The notes under the pieces are model-generated. The model was not told the origin of the DNA. It worked only from the letters and a program-made list of their open reading frames with translations, and made no database searches. This document shows, one piece after another, positions 14,098-49,741 of a DNA stretch of 64,000 bases (the stretch's first letter is position 1; each line of letters begins with the position of its first letter). This DNA is from a bacterium (lineage in GTDB: Bacteria; Zhuqueibacterota; Zhuqueibacteria; Residuimicrobiales; Krinioviventaceae). Location of the stretch: assembly GCA_963675755.2 (NCBI GenBank), contig CAXXMD010000002.1, positions 160,001 through 224,000 of the forward strand, given 5' to 3'. Both the position numbers and the translations under genes were made by a program.

Positions 14098-16050
14098 ATG
14101 GGCGATAAAAATATAAAGTGTTTGAATAAAAAACAGTATTCCATATTTAATATTGTGAAAAAAATATTTTTACCGATAATAGGATTTCTCTCTTTTTTAT
14201 GGATAGTATATCGTGTTATATCAAAACCGAGCCGAATCCAGTATCCTTGTATTAGAATGTCTGCTCCTGTTGCGTCAGGGTTTTTAATCTGGATAATGGG
14301 TCTATTTTCATCCGCCTATGCAATCCATCAGATAAAAAGATTTGTAAAAAGCAGACGATGGATTTTATCGGTTACGCTGATGTTTGTTGTACTGATTTTA
14401 ACAGTTATTTTTACTTATGATCCACAATTACCTGTTTATGCAAACTCGAACAGTTACCTTGCACCCAATACGCCTGTGGGGACTCCGCGGGGTGTAAAAC
14501 CCGGACGCGTAGTTTGGAGTTGGAATCCGAAAGCAACTAATGAAAACTGTACAAATGCATTCGGTGATGCCTACTATTTATCACAGAATACCAATATAGA
14601 TGTTGTAAACAGCATGATTGATGAATCAATTCTTCGTTTAACCGGAGCAGAAAATCTAAAATGCGCCTGGGATTCGCTGTTTGTTTATTTTAACCGAAAT
14701 CACGCCAAGGTCAACCATACCTATAACCCAGGTGAGAAAATATGTATTAAAACAAATGCGGTAGGTACAAGTGTAGATGAGGATTACAATGTAACCAACC
14801 TGTCCCAATACCAGATGGCGAGAACATCACCACAGCCGGTACTGGTTATACTGCGTCATCTGATCAATATCTGTGGTATTGCGCAGGAGAATATAAGTGT
14901 AGGAGACCCGTCCCGATATATGCAAAATGAAGTGTTTGATTTACTGCATGGCGAGTTTCCGGATGTAAAATATATCTGCCGGCAGGGCACCAAGGGCAGA
15001 ACAAAATCCGTAGCAACCGACAATGCGTCACTTTTCTATTCGGACCGGGGTACAATTTTACGGACCGGTTCGTGGGAAGACGCATCGTCCGGTTCTGCTG
15101 TGCATAATGACAAACTGTTCACAGTGATCGAAAATGCTGATTACCTGATCAACATTTCCGCGTTCAAGGCGCATGAGCGGGCGGGTGTTACCTTTTGTGC
15201 CAAAAACCATTTTGGATCACAGGGGCGCAGCAACTCCCGGCACATGCACATGGGGCTTGTGAGTCCCGATCAGGGAGAGGCTGAACGAAGTGGTTACGGC
15301 CTGTACCGGATCCAGGTTGATCTTATGGCGCACAAAGACCTTGGAGGCAAAACTGTATTATTCATGGTTGATGGATTGTGGGGCGGTTCAGGCGCCAATG
15401 ATCCGCCGCGAAAATTCCAAATGATGCCGTTCAATAATGACTGGTCGTCTTCGATTTTCATGTCGCAGGACCAGGTTGCGCTTGAATCGGTATGTTATGA
15501 TTTTCTCAAAGCAGAATTTACGGAAGACAATCCCTACGGCTCGTGGCCGCAGATGGTTGGTACGGATGATTATCTGATGCAGGCGGCAGATAATCAATAC
15601 TGGCCGGAAGGGTTTGTTTATGATCCGGAAAAAGACGAGACTGCTGTAACAAGCCTTGGCGTTCATGAACACTGGAACAATGATATAGATAAACAGTACA
15701 CGGGAAATCTGGAAGGTTCAGGCGGTATAGAACTGGTGAAAATTGAGAATACAACCTCTGTAGAATCGGAGGAAAAGAGCTTACCAGATGACATTCAGCT
15801 ACTGCAGAATTATCCCAATCCTTTTAATGCAAAAACCGTTATTTCTTTTTATCTGGAAAAGCCATCACAGGTGTCTTTAAAAATATATGATATTCAGGGA
15901 CACCAGATAGAAACCGTATGTAGTGGAATACAGCCGGCCGGTTTTAGTAGAATCCATTTTTCAGGCAGTCAATATGCCAGCGGGGTCTATTTTTATGAAC
16001 TGTTAACCGAATACAGCATTTTGAGACGAAAGATGGTTCTGATCAGGTAA
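14098..16050 (+). CDS. DUF362-domain protein with N-terminal TM helices and T9SS/FlgD-type tail
   Basis: RVISKPSRIQYPC, GVKPGRVVW, ADYLINISAFKAHERAGVTFCAKNHFGS, SQDQVALESV, GVHEHWNN; LLQNYPNPFN. ATG 14098 follows AGGAG; the ORF track starts at 14074. Confidence 0.78.
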   Translation: MGDKNIKCLNKKQYSIFNIVKKIFLPIIGFLSFLWIVYRVISKPSRIQYPCIRMSAPVASGFLIWIMGLFSSAYAIHQIKRFVKSRRWILSVTLMFVVLILTVIFTYDPQLPVYANSNSYLAPNTPVGTPRGVKPGRVVWSWNPKATNENCTNAFGDAYYLSQNTNIDVVNSMIDESILRLTGAENLKCAWDSLFVYFNRNHAKVNHTYNPGEKICIKTNAVGTSVDEDYNVTNLSQYQMARTSPQPVLVILRHLINICGIAQENISVGDPSRYMQNEVFDLLHGEFPDVKYICRQGTKGRTKSVATDNASLFYSDRGTILRTGSWEDASSGSAVHNDKLFTVIENADYLINISAFKAHERAGVTFCAKNHFGSQGRSNSRHMHMGLVSPDQGEAERSGYGLYRIQVDLMAHKDLGGKTVLFMVDGLWGGSGANDPPRKFQMMPFNNDWSSSIFMSQDQVALESVCYDFLKAEFTEDNPYGSWPQMVGTDDYLMQAADNQYWPEGFVYDPEKDETAVTSLGVHEHWNNDIDKQYTGNLEGSGGIELVKIENTTSVESEEKSLPDDIQLLQNYPNPFNAKTVISFYLEKPSQVSLKIYDIQGHQIETVCSGIQPAGFSRIHFSGSQYASGVYFYELLTEYSILRRKMVLIR

Positions 16051-21512: not shown

Positions 21513-22757
21513 ATGTTTGTGCAGAATAAGAATCTATTGAAAAAGATAATATTGTTACTCGGCTCAATTGGGCCGGGCCTCTTTTTAATTGGATATAATA
21601 TTGGTACCGGCAGCCTCACAACAATGGCTAAATCCGGCGCTCAATTTGGTATGAGTCTGTTTTGGGCTTTGCTTTTATCATGCCTGTTTACATACATACT
21701 CATGCTTGCGTATGGTAAAGTAACATTGGTTACTGGTAAAACGGCCCTGTATAATATAAAATCCTGTTTAAAGGGTGGTACACTGCTGGCTGTATATATT
21801 ATGGCTGCATTGATTTTCGGGGAGCTTCTGGCGCTGATGGGTATTATGGGCATAGTAGCCGATCTGCTGCAGGAAGGCGGACGTCTGGTGTTTGGTGTAA
21901 CCGTAAAGTCGGTATGGATCATCACAGTTTTGTCCATTGTCATGTATGCACTGCTCTGGTACGGCAGGTACAATGTGTTTGAAAAAGTATTGACGTTTTT
22001 CGTGATCCTGATGGGTGCCAGTTTTTTAGTGGTATTTTTTATGGTAAAACCGGATTTTGCTGAAATTGGCCGCGGTCTGGTTCCTGCAATTCCTGAAGGT
22101 CCGGGTGCATTGGGACTGATCGCCGCCATGGCAGGTACAACCTGTTCCGCAGCGGTCTTTATTATGCGAAGTACAGTGGTTGCTGAAAAAGGCTGGACCA
22201 TTGAGAATCTGAAGGATGAGAAAAAGGATGCTTTTGTATCTGTTTTCATGATGTTGTTTCTGAGCGGTATCATTATGGCTGTTTCAGCCGGTACGCTACA
22301 TGTAATGGGACTACAGTTAACCGAGACTATTGAAATGATCCAATTGTTTCAGCCGCTGGGCGGAAAAACGGCGGCGGTTATCCTGATTTTGGGTATCGCC
22401 GGGGCGGGTATTTCAACGATCTTTCCGATTGTATTGATTGCTCCCTGGTTGATTAGCGATTTTACCGGCAAACCCCGCGATATTCATTCTCCCTTGTATC
22501 GGATTTTGACATTAACAGCTCTTATATTCGGATTTGGCATGTTGTTTCTGGAACAAAAACCACCCGCGTTGATGATCTTTTCGCAGGCATTTCAGGCGTG
22601 TATTTTACCCGCGGTTTGCATACCCGTATTTTTACTGGTCCGCAATGAGGGCTTGATGGGGGACCATAAAGCAAAGTCCCTGTTGAGTACCGGTATATTT
22701 TTAGTGATTTTGTATTCATTCATCACCACAATTTTTGCATTGATAGAATTATTATAA
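21513..22757 (+). CDS. Nramp-like permease
   Basis: IGPGLFLIGYNIGTGSLTT, MAGTT; polytopic membrane protein; close paralog of 53427..54668. Confidence 0.8.
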   Translation: MFVQNKNLLKKIILLLGSIGPGLFLIGYNIGTGSLTTMAKSGAQFGMSLFWALLLSCLFTYILMLAYGKVTLVTGKTALYNIKSCLKGGTLLAVYIMAALIFGELLALMGIMGIVADLLQEGGRLVFGVTVKSVWIITVLSIVMYALLWYGRYNVFEKVLTFFVILMGASFLVVFFMVKPDFAEIGRGLVPAIPEGPGALGLIAAMAGTTCSAAVFIMRSTVVAEKGWTIENLKDEKKDAFVSVFMMLFLSGIIMAVSAGTLHVMGLQLTETIEMIQLFQPLGGKTAAVILILGIAGAGISTIFPIVLIAPWLISDFTGKPRDIHSPLYRILTLTALIFGFGMLFLEQKPPALMIFSQAFQACILPAVCIPVFLLVRNEGLMGDHKAKSLLSTGIFLVILYSFITTIFALIELL

Positions 22758-27635: not shown

Positions 27636-27672
27636 TTTAAAATATAAAAAGAATTTTATCTTGCTGCTTTTT

Positions 27673-27727
27673 TTAGAGTAAGAACTCATAATCCGCAGGT
27701 TCGGGATTCAAATCCCTGTGGGCCCAC
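27673..27727 (+). pseudogene. Degenerate 3' fragment of a tRNA with CAT anticodon (Ile2/Met-like)
   Basis: TTAGAG..CTCATAA TCCGC AGGTT CGGGA TTCAAAT CCCTG TGGGCCC A: anticodon loop, T-loop and 3' acceptor strand are recognisable. The 5' acceptor strand is absent, the anticodon stem is unpaired and G53 is replaced by A. Confidence 0.7.
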
Positions 27728-27730
27728 TGG

Positions 27731-27759
27731 AAAGCCATCAAACCTTTGATGGCTTTTTT
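27731..27759 (+). terminator. Rho-independent terminator
   Basis: AAAGCCATCAAA-CC-TTTGATGGCTTT followed by further Ts. Confidence 0.85.
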
Positions 27760-28044
27760 ATATAACTTTCCATAACTTTTCAATAATACTTTTCCCGATA
27801 TTAATTTTATTTCATTGTATTTAAATTTTCTTTATATATATATATGTGTGTGTTATGTATGAATTGGTTTGAATGAAATTGTTTAAAAATTAATTAATAT
27901 TATTTCAATTTTTAAAAGAATTTAATATCATAATTTCTATTTCTTTCTGTTTGTTCAGAACCTTTTAATCAATATTTATTATATAAGAATAATAAATATA
28001 TTTTTTTCTAGATGATAACTTTTCATTTTTTAAAATTTTGCTAA

Positions 28045-28115
28045 TGTTAATGTTGTTAAAAACATTATTTAACAGTTATTATCTGGATATTTGCTTTATT
28101 TATTAATACTATACA
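28045..28115 (+). promoter_or_regulatory. 71-bp conserved non-coding element, copy A (candidate operator/promoter)
   Basis: Ungapped 61/71 identity with 49353..49423; core TGTTAA-N3-TGTTAA-N9-TTAACA. Confidence 0.75.
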
Positions 28116-28250
28116 GGAGATTAATTATTATTTTAATCTTGTTTATTAATTATATATGTAGTAAAAGATAATTGAAATAAATGTAACACTTTTTTATCCA
28201 TTTTTATCTTCCAGAATAATCTGAATTATATGCGATTGGAGGTAATAACA

Positions 28251-31142
28251 ATGCGATGGTTGCAATATCTTTTCATTACTTTAGGGGTACAATTAACACT
28301 CACATTATCTGTCTATTCTGCAGTTATTCAAGGTAAAATAACAGACAAGTCTACGGGAGATCCTTTACCAGGAGCTAATGTACTCATTCAAGGTACTGCA
28401 ATTGGTGCTGCTACGAATATTGAAGGAAAATATTACATCTCCAAGGTCCCGCCTGGTAATTATACGCTGAATGTTACTTTTATAGGTTATAAATCAAGTT
28501 CAAGTAATGTGATTGTAAGTGCCAACAAACCTGCTGTTGTAGATTTTACTTTGGTTTATGATGTAGTTGAAGGGGAAACAGTAACTATTACCGCACAAGC
28601 TGAAGGTCAAATTGCTGCTATTAATCAGCAATTACGTTCAAATACAATTAAAAATGTAGTCTCTTCAGAAAGGATATTGGAATTACCAGATGCTAATGCT
28701 GCAGAATCGGTTGGAAGACTGCCTGGTATTTCTATCAAACGAAGTGGTGGTGAAGGAAATCAAATTGTTATACGTGGATTATCTCCTACTTATAATACGA
28801 TTACCGTTGGGGGAGAAAAAGTACCGGCAACGGATCTGGATACCCGTAGTGTTGATTTGAACATGATCTCTCCGGAAATATTGGATGGAATTGAAGTCAC
28901 AAAGGCGCTTACTCCAGATATGGATGCAGATGCATTTGGAGGTGTTGTAAATTTCAAACTTGCTGAAGCACCATCGGGCTTTCGGTCAAATATGCGGTTT
29001 CAACAAGGTTACAACCAGCAACGAGATGAATTGGGGCAGTATAAAGGTAGTGTTACATTGAGTAACCGTTATATGAATGATAAATTGGGTATAATGATTA
29101 CAGGTAATATGGAAAGAGCACAGCGTGGTTCTGATCAATATGAAGCCAGTTATGGTATTGTTCGTGAAAAGCGTGAAGGCGAAGAATATGCACCTGTATC
29201 AGTAGGGCAGGTTAACCTTATATATGTAGATGAAATTCGTGAACGTTTAGGTTTTAGTCTTCTTTCAGATTATAAGCTAAAGTATGGAAAAATTATGTTT
29301 TCAAATTTCTTTAGCCGTTTAAACCGAGACGAATTTAATATGCAAAATTCTTACAATGATGGTAGCAATTGGCACGAATATAGATCTACTGATCGTCAAC
29401 GTCAAATTGATATTATGACTAATTCATTTTCTGGCGAACACAGTTTGTATTTTGGTACAGTTGACTGGCGTCTTTCACGTACAGCTTCAATGACTCGACA
29501 TCCTTATGATAGCAGATTCCGTTTTCAAGAAAAAAGTGCTTTTGATCAATCAATGTTGCCGATTTATGCAACGGCAGATCAGTTGATTGCCGCTGCAGTA
29601 AATGATCTGGACAAAACATTTTTGTACCAGGGAAATTATTATGAAGAGAAAGCATTTGAACGTGATTATAATGCACAGTTTAATGTCGAAATACCTTATA
29701 TGATAAAAAATAATATTGCTGGAAAATTGAAATTTGGTGCAAAGTATACCAGTAAAAGTAAAATTCGAGATCGTTTGCATGCCAACAAACGGTTGGATAC
29801 AAATAATGAAGCTTTTGTACGTCATCATTCAAAATATGGCGATCCAGACTTTGAATTTCAAAAAATTGCTGGTACACATTTTCCGTCGATTTATAATTAT
29901 ATTGATCCCGATTTTGATGTGGGAAATTTCCTGAGTGGCGATTATGATTTTCCAGTTGGTTTAGACCGTGAAGAGCTGGACTATTTTCTAAGTTCGTACC
30001 TGTTAGATTCAACCTATGTTTTTTCGTCGCTGGCAGACATGGATGATTACGAAACTTCTGAAAATGTTAGTGCTGGTTATATAATGACAGAGATCAATTT
30101 GGGTAGATCATTGATGTTTATGCCTGGTGTGCGTTATGAACATACATTTAATGATATGACAGGACGAAAAGGAAGTATTGCGGAAGAATTTTACGAGCCT
30201 GATCTAAATGATCCTTTTGTTTCTGATACTACTGCAACAAACAAGTATGGACGATGGTTTCCTATGGTTCATGCCCGTTACAAACCGTTCAGTTGGTTTG
30301 ATATTCGAGTTGCATATACTCGAACCCTGTCACGTCCTCGTTTATCCTGGATGTTACCCAAACGTAAAATTCATGGTTCCGCACAGACTGTTGAGTTTGG
30401 TCGTCCGGATTTATTGCCACAAATTGCTACTAATTATGATATCTTTTTATCTTTTTACAGTAATCGTATTGGATTATTCACATTGGGAGGATTTTATAAA
30501 GATATAGATGATCTGATTTTTCAACGTGAGGGGCACAAAATTCTTGATCCTGAAGCCGAAGGCTTTACAAGTGACCTAAAAGGACTATGGCTCGATCGTC
30601 CAGAAAATAATCCATACAAAACTAAAATTCGTGGTCTTGAGATGGAATGGCAAACCAATCTAAATTGGCTTCCTAAACCTTTTAATGGATTTGTTATTAA
30701 TGTAAATTATTCACATATCTGGTCAGAAACACGATTCCCCAGATCTTATGTAGTCTCTGACAAAATTCCTGTCTTTCCATTTGTTGTTACAACGGTTGTT
30801 GATACATTTCGTGTAGGTGATATGCCAGACCAGCCAGATGATATCGCTAATATTGCACTTGGTTATGATAATGGACCCTTTTCAGCACGATTATCCATGT
30901 TGTACCAGGGTAAAACTTTATCAATAGTTGGCGAACGAGAAGAGTTGGATGGTTTTACCGCTGATCTTTTAAGATGGGATTTATCTGTTAAATACCGTTT
31001 AAATCAACAAATTGGCCTTTTTGTTAATTGGACAAATATTAGTAATGAAGCGGATGAATCTTTTATGTTGGATCAAAAATACCTGACTTTGAGAGAATAT
31101 TATGGTTGGACTGTAGATTTAGGTATTGCTTATTCATTATAA
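28251..31142 (+). CDS. TonB-dependent receptor (CarboxypepD_reg-like + plug + barrel; no STN)
   Basis: IQGKITDKSTGDPLPGANV, LPDANAAESVGRLPG, KALTPDMDADAFGG, PGVRYE. ATG 28251 follows GGAGGT; the ORF track starts at 28230. Confidence 0.93.
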   Translation: MRWLQYLFITLGVQLTLTLSVYSAVIQGKITDKSTGDPLPGANVLIQGTAIGAATNIEGKYYISKVPPGNYTLNVTFIGYKSSSSNVIVSANKPAVVDFTLVYDVVEGETVTITAQAEGQIAAINQQLRSNTIKNVVSSERILELPDANAAESVGRLPGISIKRSGGEGNQIVIRGLSPTYNTITVGGEKVPATDLDTRSVDLNMISPEILDGIEVTKALTPDMDADAFGGVVNFKLAEAPSGFRSNMRFQQGYNQQRDELGQYKGSVTLSNRYMNDKLGIMITGNMERAQRGSDQYEASYGIVREKREGEEYAPVSVGQVNLIYVDEIRERLGFSLLSDYKLKYGKIMFSNFFSRLNRDEFNMQNSYNDGSNWHEYRSTDRQRQIDIMTNSFSGEHSLYFGTVDWRLSRTASMTRHPYDSRFRFQEKSAFDQSMLPIYATADQLIAAAVNDLDKTFLYQGNYYEEKAFERDYNAQFNVEIPYMIKNNIAGKLKFGAKYTSKSKIRDRLHANKRLDTNNEAFVRHHSKYGDPDFEFQKIAGTHFPSIYNYIDPDFDVGNFLSGDYDFPVGLDREELDYFLSSYLLDSTYVFSSLADMDDYETSENVSAGYIMTEINLGRSLMFMPGVRYEHTFNDMTGRKGSIAEEFYEPDLNDPFVSDTTATNKYGRWFPMVHARYKPFSWFDIRVAYTRTLSRPRLSWMLPKRKIHGSAQTVEFGRPDLLPQIATNYDIFLSFYSNRIGLFTLGGFYKDIDDLIFQREGHKILDPEAEGFTSDLKGLWLDRPENNPYKTKIRGLEMEWQTNLNWLPKPFNGFVINVNYSHIWSETRFPRSYVVSDKIPVFPFVVTTVVDTFRVGDMPDQPDDIANIALGYDNGPFSARLSMLYQGKTLSIVGEREELDGFTADLLRWDLSVKYRLNQQIGLFVNWTNISNEADESFMLDQKYLTLREYYGWTVDLGIAYSL

Positions 31143-31222
31143 ACAATTAATGTAATTATCCTGTTAATGAATTTGATTATTATTGGATTTAAGTAATTCA
31201 TTCATTTTAAATCTTTTTGACA

Positions 31223-31258
31223 AGGAGGTGATTGAGTACAAAAGGTTATTACCATTAA
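31223..31258 (+). promoter_or_regulatory. Orphan Shine-Dalgarno (AGGAGGTGA) with a possible 8-codon TTG uORF, 76 nt upstream of the next start codon
   Basis: AGGAGG tga TTG AGT ACA AAA GGT TAT TAC CAT TAA; the downstream gene has its own GGAGGT. Confidence 0.45.
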
Positions 31259-31298
31259 TTCTATTAATTCATTAAAAACTTATCATCGGAGGTTTTGT

Positions 31299-32945
31299 AT
31301 GAAAGTTCTATTTACAATTTTGTTATCAACAGCTTTATGTTGTTTATTGGTTATGCCAGCAGTAGCTCAGGATTACTTGGATGTTGAACCGGGTTACGAA
31401 ACATTGAACCTTGCCATTGAAGGTGATACAACCGCAGCAGGTGAACCAGTCAGCCAGAATCGAGTTTATCGGCTACAGCGCGGTGGATATTATCTTTTGA
31501 ATGGTTCTATACAAAACTCGAAAGATATGCCACTGGTAATTGAAGCGGCTGAAGGTGATGGTGCATTACCCATTATTATCCCTGCTGCAGATGAGACCGG
31601 TGCTTCTTCAAGAGCATTTGCTTTACCCGCTGATTGTACTTTGAGGAATTTATATGTTTCCGGTATTGATAATCTGGGAAATCAGGCATCAAAGAACATG
31701 TTCCGTTTGGAAAAAACAGGTGGCCGTTATATTGTTGATGGCTGTTTTTTTGATCACGATGCACAATCATTTGTAAGAATGAATGCTGATGATCAAAAAT
31801 TATATATCTATGACTCTATCTTCCGTAATTCAATACTTCTTGCAGGTCCGGGAAATGGACGTTTTATAGATACACGCGGAAACACAGTTGATACGATGAT
31901 GGTACAAAACTCTACATTTTATATGTGTTCCAGCAGCATGGTAAGAGATGGTGGCGGAATTATTCAAAATGTATTGTTTGATCATGTGACTGTGTATCAG
32001 GGTGGTGGAAATTTTGCTTTCAATAAAGTATTGAATGGCCATTTTAATGACTGTCTCATCATAGATGCACGTTGGGAAGGTGATGTTGAGCCTACTGATC
32101 CTGCTGCCGCATTGGCTGACAGTCTGGAAACAGATATCATTTCTATTGACTCATTAAATGCTCCTGATCTGATGTCTGAAGGTGAACGTGCATTTCAGCT
32201 CAAAAATAATATTTATGGATGGACACCTGAAGTTACAGCGTTTATCGCAGGCATAGATTCACTGCAAAAAGCAGTTTTGTTTAATGTTCGCGCACAACGT
32301 TATTTTGACTTGTTTGATGGTTTTGTAGAAGAAAATAATGTTGAAGATGCTGTTGTATTTAGTGATGCTCCGGATCCAGCGAATGTTATTACTTTTGCTC
32401 AATATCGTATTGATACTGGTTTCAGTGATGAGAATAATCCTGATCCAAGAGCTGACCGAAATGGAATGGCAGCATTATCTGAAGATCCTGAAAGTATCGG
32501 ACCCGCTCCGGATGAATATGATTTTGATTACAATACCGATGCTCAAGCTTATACACATGCTGCAGGTGGATTCCCTGTTGGTGATTTAAACTGGTTCCCG
32601 GATAAAAAAGCTGAATGGGAAACCTGGATTACAACAGATATCACAGATAATAATGCTACCCCGTCAACATTTAGCATGAAACAGAATTATCCCAATCCAT
32701 TTAATCCTACAACTACAATTGATTTCGCTTTGAATAAATCTTCTCAAGTTGAATTGATCGTCTATAATGCATTGGGACAAAAAATTAGAACATTAATGAA
32801 TGGAAAAATCCAGGCTGCGGGTACCCATAGTGTAAATTGGGATGGTCGCAATGATAATGGAATCAAGGTTGCCAGTGGTATTTACATGTATCAGATCAAA
32901 GCTGGTGATCAGGTTGAAACGAAAAAAATGGTTTTAATGAAATAA
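31299..32945 (+). CDS. Secreted acidic beta-helix-like protein with GDLNWFP motif and sorting tail; TBDR partner
   Basis: Signal peptide ending AVA-Q; YRLQRGGYY, GNGRFIDTRG, GGFPVGDLNWFP, KQNYPNPFNP...KMVLMK; paralog of 4181..5749. Confidence 0.8.
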   Translation: MKVLFTILLSTALCCLLVMPAVAQDYLDVEPGYETLNLAIEGDTTAAGEPVSQNRVYRLQRGGYYLLNGSIQNSKDMPLVIEAAEGDGALPIIIPAADETGASSRAFALPADCTLRNLYVSGIDNLGNQASKNMFRLEKTGGRYIVDGCFFDHDAQSFVRMNADDQKLYIYDSIFRNSILLAGPGNGRFIDTRGNTVDTMMVQNSTFYMCSSSMVRDGGGIIQNVLFDHVTVYQGGGNFAFNKVLNGHFNDCLIIDARWEGDVEPTDPAAALADSLETDIISIDSLNAPDLMSEGERAFQLKNNIYGWTPEVTAFIAGIDSLQKAVLFNVRAQRYFDLFDGFVEENNVEDAVVFSDAPDPANVITFAQYRIDTGFSDENNPDPRADRNGMAALSEDPESIGPAPDEYDFDYNTDAQAYTHAAGGFPVGDLNWFPDKKAEWETWITTDITDNNATPSTFSMKQNYPNPFNPTTTIDFALNKSSQVELIVYNALGQKIRTLMNGKIQAAGTHSVNWDGRNDNGIKVASGIYMYQIKAGDQVETKKMVLMK

Positions 32946-32998
32946 TTCAGTTTACCGGTTTGGACGTTTTTTTCTAAAACCGGATTGGATAATCTTTC

Positions 32999-33036
32999 AG
33001 GTTGCAGCAGGTAGAATGCAAAGCCTGCTGCAACCT
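32999..33036 (+). terminator. Strong hairpin without U-tract
   Basis: Perfect 13-bp inverted repeat AGGTTGCAGCAGG / CCTGCTGCAACCT; a weaker CCGGTTT/AAACCGG stem lies at 32955-32983. Confidence 0.6.
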
Positions 33037-33079
33037 ATTGATAAAAATGATTCCTGGATTTTCATGAAAGGACCTAAAC

Positions 33080-33880
33080 ATGAAACATATTCTTATGTTT
33101 TTGCTCGTGTTTATTTTATCATCTGTTGGGAATTTGATTGCCCAGGAGGATAATGATATATCTTTACATCTGTTTGGTACGTTCTCACTTCCTACAGGTG
33201 ATTACGGTAAAGATATTACCGATAATTCAATTCCCACTCGTCGCTTTGGATTCAATATCGGTGATGATATCGGTTTGGCAACAACAGGTTTTGGCGCAGG
33301 TGCTGAATTAACATCAGCAGTGTGGTTTAAGGGACTGCAATGGATGTTTAGTGTTAATTATATACTCAATCCTGCAGAGAATTCAGCTCTGGAACCGGTT
33401 TATAATGACTTGCTTTCAGACACTACAAAAAGTGTTTCTGTTGATTTTGAATTAGGGAAATGGATTAATATTCCGATATTTAGTGGTTTTCAGTACAATT
33501 ATAACATTTCTTCAGATTTTATGATTTATGGTATGCTACAGGGTGGAATGAATTTTTCAAGACGTCCTTCTCAAAAAGCAGTTGTTCAGATTGTTCCAAG
33601 TGAAGCAAGCACTGTAGTTGCTCGTTCAGATCTTGTTGCTGAAGATACCAGTTATGAATTTGCACGGGATTTTGGATTTGGTACAGGTATGGGTATTGTT
33701 TTTAAAGATCGTATTAATCTAGGTGTAAGATATTTTAATCTCAGCCAACCCAAGTATGAAGGTACCCGCCAATTATCTGAAAAAGTTTTCCCTGAAATAT
33801 ATGCCAGAGAAAATTATATCCTCGGTGAAGAGCGTTCTATCTCTATGTTATTGGTTACTCTTGGTATTGTATTATTCTAA
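33080..33880 (+). CDS. Putative small outer-membrane beta-barrel protein
   Basis: Signal peptide, SLPTGDY, amphipathic strands (GFGAGAEL, IPIFSGFQY, INLGVRY), C-terminal LGIVLF. Confidence 0.6.
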   Translation: MKHILMFLLVFILSSVGNLIAQEDNDISLHLFGTFSLPTGDYGKDITDNSIPTRRFGFNIGDDIGLATTGFGAGAELTSAVWFKGLQWMFSVNYILNPAENSALEPVYNDLLSDTTKSVSVDFELGKWINIPIFSGFQYNYNISSDFMIYGMLQGGMNFSRRPSQKAVVQIVPSEASTVVARSDLVAEDTSYEFARDFGFGTGMGIVFKDRINLGVRYFNLSQPKYEGTRQLSEKVFPEIYARENYILGEERSISMLLVTLGIVLF

Positions 33881-33889
33881 GTTGCCCAT

Positions 33890-34936
33890 ATGAAAAAAAA
33901 ATTGAATTTTTCAATCCCCATTTATTTGCTCTTTATGCTAATTTTGCTTCAATCATGTGAGCAAACAAATATTAAAAAACCGTTCAGAACAATTTCCAAA
34001 ATTGTATTTTTATCGAATCGGGATTCTGAGCCGAGACAATTTGATGTTTTTACTATGAACCTTGATGGAAGTGAACAAATCAACTTGACGCGTGATTTGA
34101 ATTCTATTCGAACCCATTCAAGGCCAATATTATCACCAGATCAACATAAATTGGTCTTTACAGCTTTTGAAGATTCTGGACCTGTTCTCAAGTTGTTTGA
34201 TTTGCAAGACAGTACATTTACTACATTGTGTTTGTTGACACATGTTGCACCTCATGCTGAATTTTCTCCTGATGGCAAAACTATTGTTTTTGTTCAAAAG
34301 GTTGATGACCGTCGACAGATTTATCAAATCAATTCCGATGGTACCGGTGAAAGGAATCTCTCAAATAATAATTTTGATGAATACAATCCTTCTTTTGCCA
34401 GTGATGGAAAACAAATAGTCTGTGTATCAAATCGTAATAATTCCTATTTAATAAACATTTTTAACCTTGAAACCTTGAAAGTAAATGAAATTAATGTGGA
34501 TTGCGGTATTCCAGCTAATCCTAAATTTTCTCAAGATATTTCAATGATTGTATTTTCTGCGGAGCAGAATAGAGTCTCAGATATTTATATTATGAAATCT
34601 AATGGTAAACATTTACAAAACTTGACCCTTGGTCGCTACCGTAATACATTTCCACAATTTACACCTGATGGCTCAAAACTTTTATTTTTATCTAATGAAC
34701 GAGGTATGAAATATCAGGATATTTGTATAATAGATGTTAAAGGAAGACAAATAACAAATCTAACCCGAGATTTGAATTATATTAATCAGCATTTTAATAT
34801 TACACCAGATGGCCGGTTTATTATTTTCGATTCTGTCAAGTTTAATGATTGTGAAATTTTTAAAGTTGAAATTAAATCAGGTGAATTGGTCAATCTCTCC
34901 AATCATCCCAAATGGGACCAGTCACCAAATATTTAA
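33890..34936 (+). CDS. TolB-like / PD40-repeat beta-propeller lipoprotein
   Basis: Lipobox-like LLQSC; repeated FSPDGKTIVF, SFASDGKQI, FTPDGSKLLF, and NLT motifs. Confidence 0.85.
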   Translation: MKKKLNFSIPIYLLFMLILLQSCEQTNIKKPFRTISKIVFLSNRDSEPRQFDVFTMNLDGSEQINLTRDLNSIRTHSRPILSPDQHKLVFTAFEDSGPVLKLFDLQDSTFTTLCLLTHVAPHAEFSPDGKTIVFVQKVDDRRQIYQINSDGTGERNLSNNNFDEYNPSFASDGKQIVCVSNRNNSYLINIFNLETLKVNEINVDCGIPANPKFSQDISMIVFSAEQNRVSDIYIMKSNGKHLQNLTLGRYRNTFPQFTPDGSKLLFLSNERGMKYQDICIIDVKGRQITNLTRDLNYINQHFNITPDGRFIIFDSVKFNDCEIFKVEIKSGELVNLSNHPKWDQSPNI

Positions 34937-35050
34937 AAATAAAATTAAAACAGAGGTGGTTTTGTAAAGTTGTTGATTGTTAATACCTCATGGTAAAAAA
35001 AAGTGTGAATCATTTTACTAAATTTACACTTATTGTAAATGGAGGTCCAA

Positions 35051-37945
35051 ATGAGATCTTGGCAAATACTTTTAGTGCTGGCAGTTTTGTTGTCTTTAAA
35101 TTTTACGGCTCTGGGGGCAACTGGTCAAATTCAGGGGAAAATAACTGATCAGGTTACAGGAGATCCCTTGCCAGGCGCAAACATTATTCTTGAAGGAACT
35201 GCTATTGGTGCCGCTACGGATTCCAAAGGTGAATATAAAGTTTTAAAGATCCCACCAGGTAATTTCAACCTCAAAGTTACTTTTATTGGCTATAAAACAG
35301 CTACTTATGCGGTAAATGTAACTGCAGGAAGAACTGTTACAGTAAATTTAGATCTAGTTTATGATGTAGTAGAAGGAGAAACTGTTACTATCACTGCTCA
35401 GGCTGAAGGTCAAATTGCAGCAATTAACCAACAATTAAGATCCAATACCATCAAGAATGTTGTATCTGCAGAACGAATCATGGAATTGCCGGATGCGAAT
35501 GCAGCAGAATCGGTTGGACGATTACCCGGTGTTTCAATAAAGCGTAGTGGTGGAGAAGGGAATAGAGTTGTTATTCGTGGACTTTCACCAACATATAATA
35601 CCATTACCATTGGGGGTGAAAAAATACCCGCAACAGACCTTGATGATAGAAGCGTTGACCTGAATATGATTTCTCCTGAAATACTTGGCGGTATTGAGGT
35701 AACCAAAGCCCTTACACCAGATATGGATGCTGATGCTTTTGGTGGTACAGTTAATTTTAAACTTGCTGATGCTCCATCAGGTTTTCAAAGTAAATTCAGA
35801 TTTCAGGAAGGTTACAATCAACATCGTGATCAATTTGGCTTGTACAAAGGGAGTTTAACTCTCAGTAACCGTTATCTTGAAGATAAATTTGGAATTATGA
35901 TTACGGGAAACATGGAAAAAGCGCAAAGAGGTTCAGATCAGTTTAATGCAAGTTATTCAATTGTGCGTGAAAAACGAGAAGGCGAAGAGTTTGCTCCCGT
36001 AACTGTTGGAAGTGTGAATTTGGAATATTCTGATGAAATCCGTGAAAGAATGGGTTTTAGTGTATTATCTGATTATCGTTTAAAGAATGGTAAAATTTTA
36101 TTTTCAAATTTCTTTAGTCGTCTTGACCGTGATGAATATATTACAAGCAGCGATTATTCTGTGGAAAGCAATGCTCATGATTATAATTTCTCTGATTTGC
36201 AGCGCCAAATTGATGTGATGACCAACTCTCTTTCCGGAGAGCATAGCCTTTATTTTGGTACTGTTGATTGGAAAGTGTCAAGAACTTCATCTTCAACCCG
36301 TCACCCTTTTAATAATGAAATTGGAATGAAAGAGTTGAGTGCTTTTGATCAATCTCTTTTGTCACAATTCAATACTGCCGATGATTTAATTGCATCTGCG
36401 GTAAATAATTTGGATAATACTTTTCTTTACACAGGTCACTTTAGGCAGGAAAAATCATGGGAACGGGATTATAATACTCAGATAAATCTTGAAATTCCAT
36501 ATACATTAACGAACAAGATGGCTGGTTATATTAAAATGGGATTCAAGTATACTGACAAGGAAAAGAATCGTGACCGTTTTCATATGAACCATAGATTAGA
36601 TGAATGGCATGATGCTTATATTCGTTATCATACTCAATATAACGATCCCAATTTTGAATTTCAAAAAATCGCAGGTACTGGTTATGCGTCTATCCGAAAT
36701 TATATTGACGAATCAGTTGATATAAGTGATTTTTTGGATGGACAATATGATTTGGGTGTAGCTCTTGATAGAGATGAACTCAATAATTTATTTAACAGAT
36801 ATTTATTGGATTCCCTTTATATCTACTCTTCACTTGAAGAGTTGGACGATTATGAAACAAGTGAAGAAACCGCAGCCGGTTATATTATGAGCGAAATTAA
36901 TTTTGGGCGTTTTTTCATGCTGTTGCCGGGTGTTCGTTTTGAAAAGACATCAAATGATATGACGGGACGTATTGGTAGTGTACCTTCAGATCATATAGAA
37001 CCGGAACTTGATAGCCCTTATGTTGCAGATACTACGGCGACTGCATCTTATAAAAACTGGTTTCCAATGATTCATGCGCGGGTAAGACCCACTAACTGGT
37101 TTGATATTAGATTGGCTTATACGGAATCAATATCTAAACCTCGTCTTGACTGGATGCTGCCAAAGAAAAAAGTTAGAGGAAATCGTCAATCTGTCGAGTA
37201 CGGCAGCCCCAATCTGAATCCGCAGCTTGCAACCAACTATGACGTATTTTTGTCATTTTACGGCAATCGACTTGGATTGTTAACGCTGGGTGGATTTTAT
37301 AAAGAGATAAAAGATCTGATCTTTAAGCGAAATGGACACAAAATATTAGATGCTGAAGGTGAAGGTTATCCACAAAATTTACAAGGATTCTGGCTTGATC
37401 AGCCCGAAAATAATCCGTATACAACAGAAGTAAAGGGATTTGAAGTTGAATGGCAAACCAATTTTAATTGGTTACCAAAGCCATTTGATGGTTTTGTGAT
37501 CAATGCAAATTATACGCATTTGAATTCAGATACCCGGTTCCCACGTTCTTTTGTAGTTTCTGAAAAAATCCCGGTATTTCCTTTTGTCAAAACAACTGCT
37601 ATTGATACTTTTCGTGTAGGTAATATGCCAGACCAGGCAGATGACATTGCCAACCTTGCAATCGGCTATGATAAAGGCCCGTTTTCTGCAAGATTATCCA
37701 TGTTGTACCAGGGTAAAACCTTGACATCTGTTGGAGAAAGACCTGAACAAGATGGTTATACGGCAGATTTACTCAGATGGGATATGTCTGTTAAATACAG
37801 AGTGAACAGACAAATGGGTCTCTTTTTTAATTTTGCCAATATTACCAACGAACCTGACGAGTCGTTTATGCTTGATCAAAAGTATCTAACAGCACGAGAA
37901 TTTTATGGCTGGACCCTTGATGTAGGTATAGGATACGAATTCTGA
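35051..37945 (+). CDS. TonB-dependent receptor, close paralog of 28251..31142
   Basis: Long near-identical blocks (EGETVTITAQAEGQIAAINQQLRSNTIKNVVS; GPFSARLSMLYQGKTL); terminal YEF. ATG 35051 follows GGAGGT; the ORF track starts at 35039. Confidence 0.93.
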   Translation: MRSWQILLVLAVLLSLNFTALGATGQIQGKITDQVTGDPLPGANIILEGTAIGAATDSKGEYKVLKIPPGNFNLKVTFIGYKTATYAVNVTAGRTVTVNLDLVYDVVEGETVTITAQAEGQIAAINQQLRSNTIKNVVSAERIMELPDANAAESVGRLPGVSIKRSGGEGNRVVIRGLSPTYNTITIGGEKIPATDLDDRSVDLNMISPEILGGIEVTKALTPDMDADAFGGTVNFKLADAPSGFQSKFRFQEGYNQHRDQFGLYKGSLTLSNRYLEDKFGIMITGNMEKAQRGSDQFNASYSIVREKREGEEFAPVTVGSVNLEYSDEIRERMGFSVLSDYRLKNGKILFSNFFSRLDRDEYITSSDYSVESNAHDYNFSDLQRQIDVMTNSLSGEHSLYFGTVDWKVSRTSSSTRHPFNNEIGMKELSAFDQSLLSQFNTADDLIASAVNNLDNTFLYTGHFRQEKSWERDYNTQINLEIPYTLTNKMAGYIKMGFKYTDKEKNRDRFHMNHRLDEWHDAYIRYHTQYNDPNFEFQKIAGTGYASIRNYIDESVDISDFLDGQYDLGVALDRDELNNLFNRYLLDSLYIYSSLEELDDYETSEETAAGYIMSEINFGRFFMLLPGVRFEKTSNDMTGRIGSVPSDHIEPELDSPYVADTTATASYKNWFPMIHARVRPTNWFDIRLAYTESISKPRLDWMLPKKKVRGNRQSVEYGSPNLNPQLATNYDVFLSFYGNRLGLLTLGGFYKEIKDLIFKRNGHKILDAEGEGYPQNLQGFWLDQPENNPYTTEVKGFEVEWQTNFNWLPKPFDGFVINANYTHLNSDTRFPRSFVVSEKIPVFPFVKTTAIDTFRVGNMPDQADDIANLAIGYDKGPFSARLSMLYQGKTLTSVGERPEQDGYTADLLRWDMSVKYRVNRQMGLFFNFANITNEPDESFMLDQKYLTAREFYGWTLDVGIGYEF

Positions 37946-37954
37946 TTTTAAACC

Positions 37955-37989
37955 AGCAATTCAGGAGAATTCTGTTCTCCTGAATTGCT
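37955..37989 (+). terminator. Strong hairpin ending the TBDR cassette
   Basis: Perfect 15-bp inverted repeat AGCAATTCAGGAGAA / TTCTCCTGAATTGCT with a 5-nt loop. Confidence 0.65.
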
Positions 37990-38412
37990 AAAGAATTCTG
38001 AATCATTAAGAGAGACTTGCAGTATTGATCAAAAATTAATTTACAATAACAAGATTTGATTTCGCTACTGACCAGAGATTATAGAATGTTTTATTTTAAA
38101 CGTCAAATCATTCAAATAAAACAACCCGATAAAACAATAATAGATTTAGAGACAGTAATCTTTTATTTAAAAAGTATATTGTTGATTTACAAAAGTAATT
38201 CATATTTATTTAACCCCATACCATCGTTAACCTCCATTGATAGCTCTGTAAATGTATCCCTTTTAGATTATTTGAAAAAAAATTATAAATAAAGGTGCAA
38301 TTCTACCAATGGTTCGTTGCTTTTTGATTGCCTAATTAGAGTGTTTAAATTTAAAGGTATAATCGTTTTGAGCTTGAATAATATATCTAATTCTGAACTA
38401 TAAGGCATTACT

Positions 38413-40968
38413 ATGACACAGGTATTCAAGATGTTGAAAATCCGGATTGATAAAATGTCTAATCATTTAAAAAATACTAGTATTGTTTTGAGAATTTTTG
38501 TTCTCTTTTTTTCAATTTTGGGATTATATCATGAGGCTTTTTCTTTAGATCATCCACATATGATTGTGCAAAAACAGGATTTTTCATCTATGGAGGAAAA
38601 GCAAAAAGAGTGGCCCTGGTCTGTTATGAAAGAAAAGGCAATAACTACTGCCAAAAGTATGAATTATAATTCCACCTGGACGCTGGATAAAAAGTGTACC
38701 CGAATACATGAAATGGCCAGTGCTATTGCCCTGGCTTTTATTTTAGATCAGGAATCACGATCAGTTTATATAAACAAAGTTGAATCACAAATTGCCGAGG
38801 GGATCCATTCTATTCGCCTTTTAAAAGGTACAGGTACTGATCATGGTTATAATGTTGCTCCGGCACATGCGGCTTTTATGGTCTACCTGCTACTTGATAT
38901 CATGTATGATGATCTGTCTTTGGATGTACGACAATCCATGGAAGACGATTGTGATTATATTGCATCAAATCATGTTCATTCATGGTTTGCCAGTGAATAT
39001 TCAATAAAAGGCATGATGGAGTTGTATCATAATGGAAATACGGTCTCCTTTAAAGCATGGAAGGATTTATACAAAAATCATATTCTGGATTTAACCAGTT
39101 CAGATGGTGTATATTCTGCCGGACCGGGATATTCAAAGAGTCGCCTTTTTATGGATAACAGAATGCAAAAGAAAATATTTATGGATATATGCGAATATCA
39201 AGGATATAATGAATTTTTTAATAATCCCAAATTGCAGTTGTTGTATGAATGGGTTATGGGTTATTTAGTGACACCCTTTAACAGATCCTATACGTTTGGT
39301 GATACTCCACCAACCAAGGATTTGGATTACTGGACGGTTGCAGCTTTGCGAGTTCAAAAGTTTTCAGAAAATGCTGCTTCATATGCATTGTGGAGAATGG
39401 GACCTCTGGATGATGATAACATTATCGGTGGGCTGTTACATTTTTTACTTTGCGATTCATTGCCCGTTCAGCCCACAAGACCCAGGAGTAAAATTTTTGA
39501 TAACGGTGGTGCATGGTTAAGAGAAGATTCAGAATCCAAATATTCACTTGCTGCTGTTTTATGGAATATCAATACAATTAAAGATAGTCACAGACATTTT
39601 GATATTAATGCGATACATATTGCCGGATACGGAGCTCACATTCTTCGTAATTCCGGGTATGATGGTTCCGGCATGCCTGATCCCGTTACCTGGGATTGGA
39701 TAAAATATACCGCCGAGTCATCAAATACTTTAATGATGAACGACAAGAATCATGCAATGATTCAAGGGGGTGGTATAGATGAAGGATTAATAGGGGGTAA
39801 CTTTGAATATGCATGTGGTAATTCAGGTTCTGTACTACCTTTGGGTACTCATCATAGAAATATGATATTTGTAAGACCTGTAAATGATAAAGTAAACGGA
39901 TATTTTATTTTTATAGACCAATTGCGTACCATCTTTCAATGGGATGCTAACGCATTAGTAAATATAGCCTGGCACCCTAATTCTTTTCATTCTCCAGATG
40001 TTACTGAAAACAACAATAGATTCAGTTGGCAAATTGATGGATGTGACTATGGTGGTGAAGGAGTTGGTGTTTCAATTCATACTGTAACACCAACCATTGA
40101 TTGGGAAATTCGCGATGGATACTTGGCATCATATAGTGATTGCAGCCGTTTTACTGGCAAATATCTTTATAATAGTTATCAGTGCAGTAATAACCTGGCT
40201 GATATTATGACAATTATTTTTCCGTTTGATGTTAACCATACAGTTGCACAAATGAAATCGTTAGAAATAAATGGGGGAGAGGGTTGTGAAATTTCCCATG
40301 ATGACTCTATAATTGATTATGCACTTGTGTCTCGTGATTCAAGTGTCTGTTTTGAAAGTGTTTCGTTTGCAGGAACTGGGGTTGTGTGGCGTGAGAATAA
40401 TGGATCTTTGAGTAATCTATTAGCAATCAAAAGTACAGAGTTTTTTGATAATGATTCAGAAATTGGTTTTAAATGCGATTCTGAAATATCCATTCAATTG
40501 GATGGCAATACAGGTAAACTGATTTCAAAAGGCGGGGACATAACTTTTTTTCAGCGTGGTATTGAGCAAATAAAAAGTGATGGAATGGCATTACCTGTTT
40601 TGGCATCAGGTGACAATTGGATGACTGTTGCTGTTGATTCCGGGCAACATGATATTGTTCTGGAAATTGCCCCAACTCATGTTGATGATTTAACAATTAT
40701 GACGAGTACTTCCAATGAACTGCTTCAAAATTATCCCAATCCATTTAACAACTCTACTGTTATTAGTTTTAGTATTGAAACTCCTGAATTTGTTGATTTA
40801 TCAATTTTTAATATCAATGGCCAGTTGGTAAATCAATTGGTCAAAGCGTATAAAACTGCCGGCAGTTATCGGGTAAAATGGGATGCTCAAGGTTTATCGC
40901 GAGGTATATATTTCGTCCGGATTACCACTGGCGAGTTTAAACAGGTGAAAAAAATTATTTTACAATAG
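38413..40968 (+). CDS. Heparinase II/III-like (alpha-toroid + beta-sandwich) polysaccharide lyase with sorting tail
   Basis: DHPHMI N-terminus, TFGDT, HRHFDINAIHIAGYG..LRNSGY, SSNTL, HHRNMIFV; LLQNYPNPFN. An alternative start lies at 38455. Confidence 0.68.
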   Translation: MTQVFKMLKIRIDKMSNHLKNTSIVLRIFVLFFSILGLYHEAFSLDHPHMIVQKQDFSSMEEKQKEWPWSVMKEKAITTAKSMNYNSTWTLDKKCTRIHEMASAIALAFILDQESRSVYINKVESQIAEGIHSIRLLKGTGTDHGYNVAPAHAAFMVYLLLDIMYDDLSLDVRQSMEDDCDYIASNHVHSWFASEYSIKGMMELYHNGNTVSFKAWKDLYKNHILDLTSSDGVYSAGPGYSKSRLFMDNRMQKKIFMDICEYQGYNEFFNNPKLQLLYEWVMGYLVTPFNRSYTFGDTPPTKDLDYWTVAALRVQKFSENAASYALWRMGPLDDDNIIGGLLHFLLCDSLPVQPTRPRSKIFDNGGAWLREDSESKYSLAAVLWNINTIKDSHRHFDINAIHIAGYGAHILRNSGYDGSGMPDPVTWDWIKYTAESSNTLMMNDKNHAMIQGGGIDEGLIGGNFEYACGNSGSVLPLGTHHRNMIFVRPVNDKVNGYFIFIDQLRTIFQWDANALVNIAWHPNSFHSPDVTENNNRFSWQIDGCDYGGEGVGVSIHTVTPTIDWEIRDGYLASYSDCSRFTGKYLYNSYQCSNNLADIMTIIFPFDVNHTVAQMKSLEINGGEGCEISHDDSIIDYALVSRDSSVCFESVSFAGTGVVWRENNGSLSNLLAIKSTEFFDNDSEIGFKCDSEISIQLDGNTGKLISKGGDITFFQRGIEQIKSDGMALPVLASGDNWMTVAVDSGQHDIVLEIAPTHVDDLTIMTSTSNELLQNYPNPFNNSTVISFSIETPEFVDLSIFNINGQLVNQLVKAYKTAGSYRVKWDAQGLSRGIYFVRITTGEFKQVKKIILQ

Positions 40969-41075
40969 TACATTTTTTATTTATTGGTTTGCTATACAAA
41001 AGAAGCGAGTGACCAATAGAATTTTTCCATCACTTTTTAAAAATTACAGATTTATTGGACTATAACGAGCAGGAC

Positions 41076-42503: not shown

Positions 42504-42552
42504 GAAATCTATAAACAAGAGGATTTGATATGTTATTCTTTAAAAAATATAT

Positions 42553-44049: not shown

Positions 44050-44099
44050 TTCAAAACAGGTTTATATGGATAATAATCGATTGCAATAAATAGGAAAAT

Positions 44100-46655: not shown

Positions 46656-46673
46656 CAAAGAAAGGTGTATATT

Positions 46674-49260: not shown

Positions 49261-49352
49261 AATCTATTAATTCCTGTACTAGTCATATTTTCAGATGTAA
49301 TGAACAATTACTTGTTTAAAATAGGAGTATAATTATTAAAATGCAATAGTAT

Positions 49353-49423
49353 TGTTAAGGATGTTAAAAACATAAATTAACAGTTATTATCTGGAAATTT
49401 GGGCTAATTATTAATACCATACA
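49353..49423 (+). promoter_or_regulatory. 71-bp conserved non-coding element, copy B, in the divergent regulator/SSS intergenic region
   Basis: 61/71 identical to 28045..28115; begins 93 bp from the regulator start codon. Confidence 0.75.
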
Positions 49424-49741
49424 ATATGTAATTTTTTGTGTTTATCTGGTCCTTTAAAATGATACTAAATCATTGTAAGAATAATGAAAAGTTGAAAATA
49501 CATACTCTAAAAAGAGACAATTTTATTAAATTTTGAATGATTGCATATAAATAATTTAACAGTTCTTTTTACTTTGATCTTTCAATTAATTTCCTGCTGC
49601 AAATTATAATCTTGAAATTGTATTTTGCACCATGACTCACGATTAACTCACCGAATGTGAATGTACTATTGGTAGCGCTGTAATCCATTGCAATTAATTA
49701 GGATTATTTATTGATCAAAAAAATACAGGTTTAGGGAAGAC

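Follow-up and report, generated by a model that had tools for sequence, protein, structure and literature searches.

What does a 71-bp stretch of non-coding DNA do that is found twice, some 21 kb apart, with the gene for a putative membrane-anchored transcription regulator lying between the two copies? We addressed this question in a member of an uncultured bacterial phylum, Zhuqueibacterota, on a stretch of 64,000 bases (the window, G000:C2:160001-224000) of the genome assembly G000, which comprises 6,481,216 bases in three contigs. Analysis of open reading frames (ORFs) and Pfam domains confirmed the setting given by the initial annotation: the first copy (A) precedes a TonB-dependent receptor gene, and the second (B) lies between the regulator gene and an operon that begins with a sodium:solute symporter gene. 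On comparison of the sequences, the likely answer is that A and B are twin complete promoters, each carrying a docking site for the membrane-anchored regulator encoded between them, and that this regulator switches on two glycan operons.

According to this model, each 71-bp copy would be a regulator-dependent promoter of the sigma-70 type, built from two TGTTAA hexamers, a degenerate operator unit, the main unit TAACAGTTATT, a weak -35 box, a 17-bp spacer and a -10 box. The regulator (47986-49260) would be a transmembrane one-component regulator resembling ToxR and CadC. Its periplasmic domain would detect a cue that is probably released when an acidic glycan of the uronic-acid type is degraded, and its cytoplasmic winged helix of the OmpR/PhoB type would bind the units next to the -35 box and recruit RNA polymerase. 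An operon for outer-membrane uptake and degradation (from A) and one for inner-membrane uptake and catabolism (from B) would be switched on together. We infer that this protein is the one that binds and that it activates rather than represses; where transcription starts, how far each operon extends and what the ligand is are likewise inferred.

Two copies of the module and their conservation

Copies A (28045-28115, plus strand) and B (49353-49423, plus strand) align without gaps and are identical at 61/71 positions, so that the duplication first reported for the element at 28045 was confirmed by alignment. A repeat search stretches the pair to 108 nt, again ungapped and with 77% identity (28042-28149 and 49350-49457; repeat family D7). 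With up to two mismatches allowed, a scan of the window for TGTTAA-N3-TGTTAA-N9-TTAACA gave exactly two occurrences; shuffled sequences lead one to expect 0.02 occurrences, and none of 100 shuffles gave two or more. Across the whole of G000, a blastn-short search with both intergenic regions found A and B to be the sole copies, and a scan in which 7 of the 35 specified bases could be mismatched returned the same two matches only. At G000:C2:2074304, within a long ORF, 18 nt agree exactly with a section of A; this was rejected as a chance hit. Since neither BLAST nor the mismatch scan revealed a third copy, a dispersed mobile repeat is excluded. This disposes of the scatter, resembling that of miniature inverted-repeat transposable elements, which the initial annotation had raised as an objection: there are two copies in 6.48 Mb, and both are syntenic in a sister genome of the same genus (G001).

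In that genome the two copies occupy orthologous places, 23 kb apart. Element A matches its orthologue at 68/71 positions and element B at 65/71, as against 46/109 for the non-coding flank before A (27901-28009) and 93/177 for the non-coding flank after B (49424-49600). The conservation of B stops at the 3′ edge of the element. Across the four copies (A, B and both orthologues) 55 of the 71 positions are invariant. Variation is found in the 3 bp that separate the hexamers, near positions 22-24, at position 44 and in the segment that separates the predicted -35 box from the predicted -10 box.

Within this last stretch, the spacer between the boxes, A and B still agree at 12/17 positions, and the bases that they have in common suggest that one promoter was copied from the other. 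Shared spacer positions speak for copying by descent rather than convergence, and might be taken to mean that the element is a neutral leftover of a local duplication or of a mobile short repeat. We consider this extremely improbable. The genome has no copies besides A and B, and neither terminal inverted repeats nor target duplications were noted; the genes downstream are unrelated, a receptor in one case and a symporter in the other; both copies are far better conserved across species than their flanks; and throughout the phylum the core motif turns up next to homologous regulators, as described below.

When the local promoters of loci L004 (in genomes G024, G032 and G021), L007 (in G034) and L017 (in G011) were used as queries, none turned out to have a long duplicate, in assemblies that are fragmented and in which short second sites would escape detection. 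The L007 query gave one short match in G034 besides itself, at the promoter of another paralogue. Thus, among the genomes queried, with their fragmented assemblies, the long promoter duplication was seen in this genus only. In most loci of the family, moreover, the regulator faces the receptor operon directly. Together with the lack of a second long copy in the five other genomes, this arrangement indicates that the two-promoter layout is probably a derived feature of this genus.

A conserved element preceding two operons might also act as RNA, whether as a shared 5′ leader, a riboswitch or a small RNA. The reach of the similarity, up to 108 nt, would suit such a role, as would the long leaders that both predicted start sites leave (~110 nt for the operon following A and ~315 nt for that following B). 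We nevertheless hold an RNA function to be very improbable, since the best Rfam matches attained 16.7-18.5 bits against cut-offs of 39-119, and folds of both strands of both copies were no better than those of shuffled sequences (z -1.10, -0.15, -1.36 and -0.84). The structures predicted for A and B also differ from each other. Furthermore, if the element is a promoter, nearly all of its 71 bp lie upstream of the start, and the conservation of B in G001 does not extend beyond the element into the leader.

The regulator and its family

The regulator gene (47986-49260, minus strand) encodes a protein of 424 residues, P0001, predicted to consist of a winged helix (residues ~2-106), a membrane helix (116-145) and a periplasmic domain (~159-417). 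G001 encodes a regulator 90% identical to it. An NCBIfam scan of P0001 gave no match, and neither the Pfam nor the NCBIfam scan, at E up to 10, detected a receiver or kinase domain of the kind used in phosphorelays. An AlphaFold2 model was built from a 15-sequence alignment, with a predicted local distance difference test score (pLDDT) of 82. Residues 2-106 of the model match the folds of PrrA (Z 7.8), the DNA-binding domain of CadC (Z 6.3) and TcpP (Z 5.5), and also those of GlnR, ArlR, CpxR and PhoP. Foldseek likened the N-terminal domain to the effector domain of PhoB on pho-box DNA (1gxp, probability 0.97); for the whole P0001 model it found nothing with an E of 0.001 or lower. Helix 66-83 is presumably the recognition helix, provided that the winged helix has the arrangement of OmpR/PhoB proteins. 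In the family alignment 18 columns are invariant and 11 nearly so, and this helix accounts for 3 and 4 of them, respectively, a conservation that fits a core motif common to the family.

Residues 116-145 form one long helix in the model, over a hydrophobic stretch with lysines before it, and the C-terminal part is predicted to lie outside the cytoplasm. This part (residues 159-417, encoded by 47986-48786 on the minus strand) is modelled as an alpha/beta domain and matches no Pfam family. In fold it comes closest to the C-terminal part of BcsB, a cellulose-synthase subunit (Z 10.8), followed by the N-terminal domains of GH67, GH84 and GH115 enzymes (Z 8-9.7). Likeness to BcsB and to non-catalytic domains of glucuronidases makes it a candidate glycan sensor, which we offer as a lead only. 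Members of the family are annotated in the sources as 'hypothetical protein' and nothing more specific, and no published account of the regulator family or of its motif was found in a literature search that left subscription journals outside its scope.

A link between the motif and this family emerged from the genome itself. G000 has three paralogues of the regulator, and the palindrome TAAC-N-GTTA (element positions 26-34) occurs 24 times in its ~554 kb of non-coding DNA, yet beside 3/3 paralogues. Within the same order, 27 genomes yielded upstream DNA for 70 homologues, 66 of them from outside this genus. The exact core TAACNGTTA was present within 500 bp upstream of 26/66 of the latter. By comparison, it was present in 78/4960 (1.6%) of the corresponding regions of all G000 ORFs, in 9/401 (2.2%) of the divergent intergenic regions of G000 and, when the 66 regions were shuffled, in a mean of 0.97/66 with a maximum of 4.

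A 38-nt weight matrix was refined on 48 sites, with G000 and G001 excluded. When run over 12,962,210 positions of G000 (both strands), the matrix ranked A first (26.4 bits) and B second (25.2 bits). The third match, at 23.0 bits, lies beside paralogue 1; only these three exceed 22 bits, and 12 matches exceed 18 bits. A phylum-wide search located the regulator in 70/167 genomes and 48/100 genera (a tally that includes the unpublished genome G158), with up to 12 family matches per genome. In held-out loci from other orders and classes, 12/17 had a site of at least 18 bits reading away from the regulator and 0/17 had one in the reversed direction, with 7/4960 G000 upstream regions as the control. 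Regular-expression forms of the tandem site proved too insensitive or too unspecific for comparing genomes with and without the regulator. The enrichment of the motif beside homologues, within the order and in the held-out loci, and the top ranks of A and B support what the initial annotation had put forward, namely that the element is the predicted site of the adjacent membrane-anchored winged-helix regulator and marks a regulon of two operons.

The genes that may be controlled from such sites were surveyed through the longest ORF downstream of the site, in most cases incomplete, in 54 loci. This ORF encodes a TonB-dependent receptor in 18 loci, a glycoside hydrolase, lyase or sulfatase in 12, a LacI-type protein in 4, a secretion-tail protein in 2 and a member of another family in 2; in the remaining 16 it has no Pfam family. 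The regulator is the sole constant neighbour of the site. From this tally, with the regulator as constant partner, the family appears to form a class that regulates glycan-utilisation loci in this phylum.

Three further places in G000 deserve mention. Beside paralogue 1 (G000:C2:2053877-2054010), the tandem site scores 23.0 bits toward the regulator gene and 18.5 bits toward the divergent gene; the gene of this regulator is the first in a run of ORFs on one strand, one of them of 1025 residues, and the regulator may drive its own operon. Two other matrix matches lie far from the paralogues, one 41 bases before a small ORF (G000:C2:544330, 21.7 bits) and one in a 367-bp gap between two minus-strand ORFs (G000:C2:2008055, 21.5 bits).

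Parts of the module and promoter geometry

Read from the 38-nt matrix, the family site is an 11-bp unit, T-A/C-A-C-N-G-T-T-A-W-T, repeated directly in tandem with a period of 11 bp and followed by C-T-T-G-A. Matrix columns -10 to 0 repeat columns 1 to 11 and 12 to 15, and clear tandems are found for example in L009, L017, L041 and L094-L098. The central base of the unit is free (A 13, C 15, G 17, T 3).

This free centre bears on the question of which protein reads the motif. TAAC-N-GTTA is palindromic, and LacI-type genes lie downstream of the site in 4/54 loci, so another transcription factor, such as a LacI-type or a global carbohydrate regulator, could bind it, with the adjacency of the membrane regulator reflecting no more than the type of locus. 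We regard this as improbable. LacI operators are even palindromes centred on CG. A tandem direct repeat of 11 bp with a free central base is ill-suited to that form, whereas it suits a winged-helix protein bound head to tail. Moreover, the membrane regulator is the only constant gene beside the site, no LacI-type gene was detected in the A-B locus with Pfam, and the top matrix matches in G000 are confined to the loci of regulator paralogues instead of being spread over sugar genes.

The reading of the site as part of a promoter comes from the family as a whole. With position 1 set at the first T of the main unit, the -35-like C-T-T-G-A occupies positions 14-18, and a 17-bp spacer separates the -35 from the -10 box. 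Among the 58 sites of at least 17 bits, a TATAAT-like hexamer begins at position 38 in 22, a clear mode; position 38 is T in 48/58, position 39 is A in 37/58 and position 43 is T in 43/58; this -10 region falls outside the stretch used to train the matrix. By matrix and -10 register together, the promoter-proximal unit abuts the -35 box of a sigma-70-type promoter family-wide. The -35 and -10 boxes of the family agree with the promoter words of G000, TTGAC and TATATT, a genome in which Shine-Dalgarno sites are in use. Two other promoter types were considered and rejected: the Bacteroidota-type TAnnTTTG, because it shows no strand bias upstream of genes (363 vs 317) and G000 uses TTGAC/TATATT, and a sigma-54 box, judged by eye, because the GG-to-GC spacing is unsuitable.

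Module A can be read in this register along the plus strand. It opens with two distal TGTTAA hexamers (28045-28050 and 28054-28059), 9 bp apart and invariant in A, B and both G001 copies. A degenerate upstream unit, AAACATTATT (28060-28069), was recognised by reading against the family matrix, 10 bp before the main unit; it is less conserved in B, where it reads AAACATAAAT. The main operator unit, TAACAGTTATT with the palindrome TAACAGTTA inside (28070-28080), corresponds to family matrix positions 1-11, has its predicted centre at about -44 and is identical in A, B and both G001 copies. Next come the predicted -35 box, a weak TGGATA (28084-28089) placed by the register of C-T-T-G-A in homologous loci, and, after 17 bp, the predicted -10 box TACTAT (28107-28112), placed by cross-locus register, with transcription expected to start at about 28119.

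In B the main unit TAACAGTTATT (49378-49388, plus strand) was located by a motif listing, the family matrix and the four-copy alignment. Its predicted -35 box is TGGAAA (49392-49397) and its predicted -10 box TACCAT (49415-49420), both on the plus strand and in the same register as in A, and the start would lie at about 49427. In both modules the assignment of the boxes thus derives from the cross-locus register and not from the two copies alone. Conservation over 71 bp that stops just past the -10 box is what would be expected of an operator together with a core promoter, and this is most likely what the 71 bp represent. They had at first been annotated as an operator; an operator is indeed predicted within them, but not by itself, as the -35 and -10 boxes are included.

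The definition of the site was revised in a similar way. Of the hexamers originally put forward, TTAACA falls mostly within the family core, but the TGTTAA hexamers do not belong to that core, being distal and confined to a subset of loci. In homologous loci, hexamers of the form TGT[TC][AG]A begin most often ~25 bp before the main unit (8/57 sites), and the arrangement TGTTAA-N9/10-TTAAC is also found in L017, L048 and L015. The closest cross-family homologues, L004-L007 (36-39% identity), show TTAACA/TGTTAAC words followed by T-A/C-AC-G-GTTATTATCT, with a proximal sequence as in A and B. This preferred place and the recurrence in some homologous loci suggest that the distal hexamers are probably functional, as a feature of a subset of the family. 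The additional ttaacagtt noted downstream of B (49556-49564) is present, but finds no support as a third site, being unconserved in G001 and scoring below 14 bits with the family matrix.

On the opposite strand each TGTTAA hexamer spells TTAACA, which resembles a -35 box, and in B this word could serve the regulator's own promoter. The same protein acting on the same sites might then be a repressor, occupying the units and the -35 region as long as no signal is present, or act both ways, and in B would also shut its own divergent promoter. In keeping with this, a consensus scan drew, on the minus strand, the pair TTAACA-18-AATTAT in B, which shares bases with the first hexamer, and in A as well as B the pair TTAATA-17-GATAAT, and a third, partial unit overlaps the -35 box. 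We think repression unlikely, however, because the sites lie upstream of the -35 box and abut it, rather than between the boxes or over the start, and because A and B have weak -35 boxes, a trait of activator-dependent promoters. The hexamers are kept in A though no minus-strand gene lies to its left and the flank there is unconserved (46/109). In addition, ToxR, CadC and TcpP, which have a similar layout, and BguR are reported to be activators. The regulon proposed in the initial annotation is retained as to its two operons; control of the regulator itself, which it also included, is not, since the predicted promoter in B reads away from the regulator.

Several observations weigh against activation of twin promoters by this regulator. 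As to the protein, its match to Pfam Trans_reg_C has E 0.0012 and 19.3 bits, compared with a cut-off of 26.2, and the Z scores of the winged-helix fold (5.5-7.8) are moderate. As to the family, the exact core is absent from 40/66 homologues, 5/17 held-out loci remain below 18 bits, and the site of paralogue 2 scores just 12.5 bits; related loci are not independent samples, and the presence of kin genomes makes the counts overstate independence, though the effect is very large. Since all paralogues have a similar core, the predicted assignment of A and B to this particular paralogue depends on adjacency and on how nearly identical the two copies are. As to the modules, only one unit in A and B is near consensus, the upstream unit being degenerate and at a spacing of 10 rather than 11 bp; the TGTTAA hexamers are 9 bp apart, which is no helical repeat; and the predicted -35 and -10 boxes each agree with the consensus at 4/6 positions. 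Other hexamer pairs can be drawn on both strands of this AT-rich DNA, and the counts from the scan are about those of shuffles (7 vs 6.7 and 6 vs 5.0).

In G034, four paralogue promoters (L007, L042, L054 and L059) share AC-N-GTTATTATCT and differ mainly at the central and second base of the unit. Such a shared core raises the question of how cross-talk is avoided. One tentative and rather unlikely answer, prompted also by the nearly invariant helix 66-83 in genomes with up to about a dozen paralogues, is that the choice of promoter is set less by DNA sequence than by place, the regulator being inserted into the membrane beside its own gene and acting mainly on the adjoining promoter. A second operon 21 kb off would then have needed a copy of the whole 71-bp module, distal hexamers included. 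If true, this would amount to spatially enforced specificity for membrane-bound transcription factors.

The two putative operons and the relation to known systems

Copy A lies 115 bases upstream of the ORF of a TonB-dependent receptor (28230-31142) with CarboxypepD_reg, Plug and barrel domains. This ORF is the first of a putative operon (28230-47813, plus strand) that, by ORFs and Pfam, encodes two TonB-dependent receptors, type IX secretion cargo, GH28 and oligogalacturonate-lyase-like proteins. Strand and spacing suggest that it would be transcribed as one unit; a 468-bp gap within it (37946-38412) could house another promoter. The regulator gene, on the minus strand, stands tail-to-tail with this run. 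Copy B is 92 bases from the start codon of the regulator and 318 bases before the sodium:solute symporter gene (49742-51511). The latter heads a second putative operon (49742-61031, plus strand), whose transcript is presumed to cover genes, again assigned by ORFs and Pfam, for the symporter, for URO-D-like, GATase1-like, Nramp-like and TIM-barrel isomerase-like proteins and for GH28, GH20 and GH88-like proteins.

Upstream of A, a terminator-like hairpin followed by a T run (27731-27756, plus strand) separates the preceding operon from promoter A. The fold of 27715-27765 has -18.5 kcal/mol (z -3.99), with 0/200 shuffles as good; a simple consensus terminator scan did not list this hairpin. By eye, 27678-27727 resembles the 3′ two-thirds of a transfer RNA (tRNA), with an anticodon-loop-like CTCATAA and a T-arm-like GGTTCGGGATTCAAATCCC. 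ARAGORN calls no tRNA before A, and 27636-28009 as a whole does not align with G001. A scar of integration or rearrangement may lie just upstream of promoter A.

The window contains several other repeated or unusual genes. Three TonB-dependent receptor genes are paralogous, with 64-71% DNA identity over 28326-28625, 35129-35428 and 1256-1555 (repeat family D1); two of them are in the operon following A, and only the first is preceded by the 71-bp module. Copies of repeat D4/D5 are found at 5476-5545, 10349-10418, 13763-13819, 15792-15861, 32669-32738, 40713-40748 and 42245-42280, and the last three correspond in Pfam to the start of the Por_Secre_tail sorting domain of type IX secretion. In the operon following B, the genes for the URO-D-like (PF01208) and GATase1-like (PF07090) proteins (51521-53377) come directly after the symporter. 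Two Nramp-family transporter genes (21513-22757 and 53427-54668) share stretches of 72-73% identical DNA (D8, D13), and both are inside sugar-catabolism operons, an unusual place for a metal-transporter family.

If the proposed model is correct, it supplies a concrete DNA site and a promoter geometry for an unnamed family of membrane-anchored regulators in an uncultured phylum, and the site becomes usable for regulon prediction in metagenome-assembled genomes. It would also add a further way of switching on TonB-dependent-receptor loci to those provided by hybrid two-component systems, sigma/anti-sigma pairs and proteins of the SusR/BguR type.

Among known regulators, the predicted protein resembles ToxR, CadC and TcpP in having, according to the model, an N-terminal winged helix of the OmpR/PhoB type, followed by a single helix predicted to span the membrane and by a putative sensor on the periplasmic side; like them, it would work without a phosphorelay. 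The resemblance extends to the fold, which matches the DNA-binding domain of CadC (5ju7) and TcpP in a complex activating RNA polymerase (9gdr). Transmembrane transcription regulators are widespread and 56% of them single-pass, according to a survey (PMC10269533), and CadC (PMC5430869) and ToxR (PMC7496328) are reported as characterised transmembrane activators. The present family differs from them in several respects. The periplasmic domains of CadC, ToxR and TcpP are absent among the 50 best fold matches listed for P0001, the predicted targets are operons for glycan uptake and breakdown, the operator sequence is another one, and the family is expanded, with as many as 12 matches in one genome of an uncultured phylum.

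OmpR/PhoB-family proteins bind tandem repeats that are phased helically and lie upstream of the -35 box, as in the pho box. The 11-bp direct repeats of the present family are comparable in being directly upstream of the -35 box and partly replacing it. P0001 differs from OmpR and PhoB in being without a receiver domain and, by prediction, anchored in the membrane, and A and B differ from their operators in having one near-consensus unit and extra TGTTAA hexamers further upstream.

With SusR and BguR, which activate polysaccharide utilization loci of Bacteroidota, the system shares a single membrane protein with predicted periplasmic sensing, an adjacent TonB-dependent-receptor operon and no phosphorelay. 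BguR is described in a preprint as a one-component activator in the membrane that acts on a laminarin locus, where a conserved motif separates the regulator gene from the first structural gene, and as having an N-terminal beta-propeller sensor with a Y_Y_Y domain and a C-terminal helix-turn-helix of the GerE type (10.64898/2026.01.10.698779). In P0001 the order of domains is reversed and the predicted DNA-binding domain is of the OmpR/PhoB type; homology is not apparent, and membership of the SusR/BguR type was rejected because topology and DNA-binding domain differ. No protein of the window matched the SusD families of Pfam at E 1e-5. At the present locus the receptor is followed by a secretion-tail protein, and the host uses Shine-Dalgarno sites and promoters other than those of Bacteroidota. 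The layout and the site geometry are of known types, whereas the regulator family, the operator sequence and the predicted role in glycan utilisation appear to constitute a new variant.

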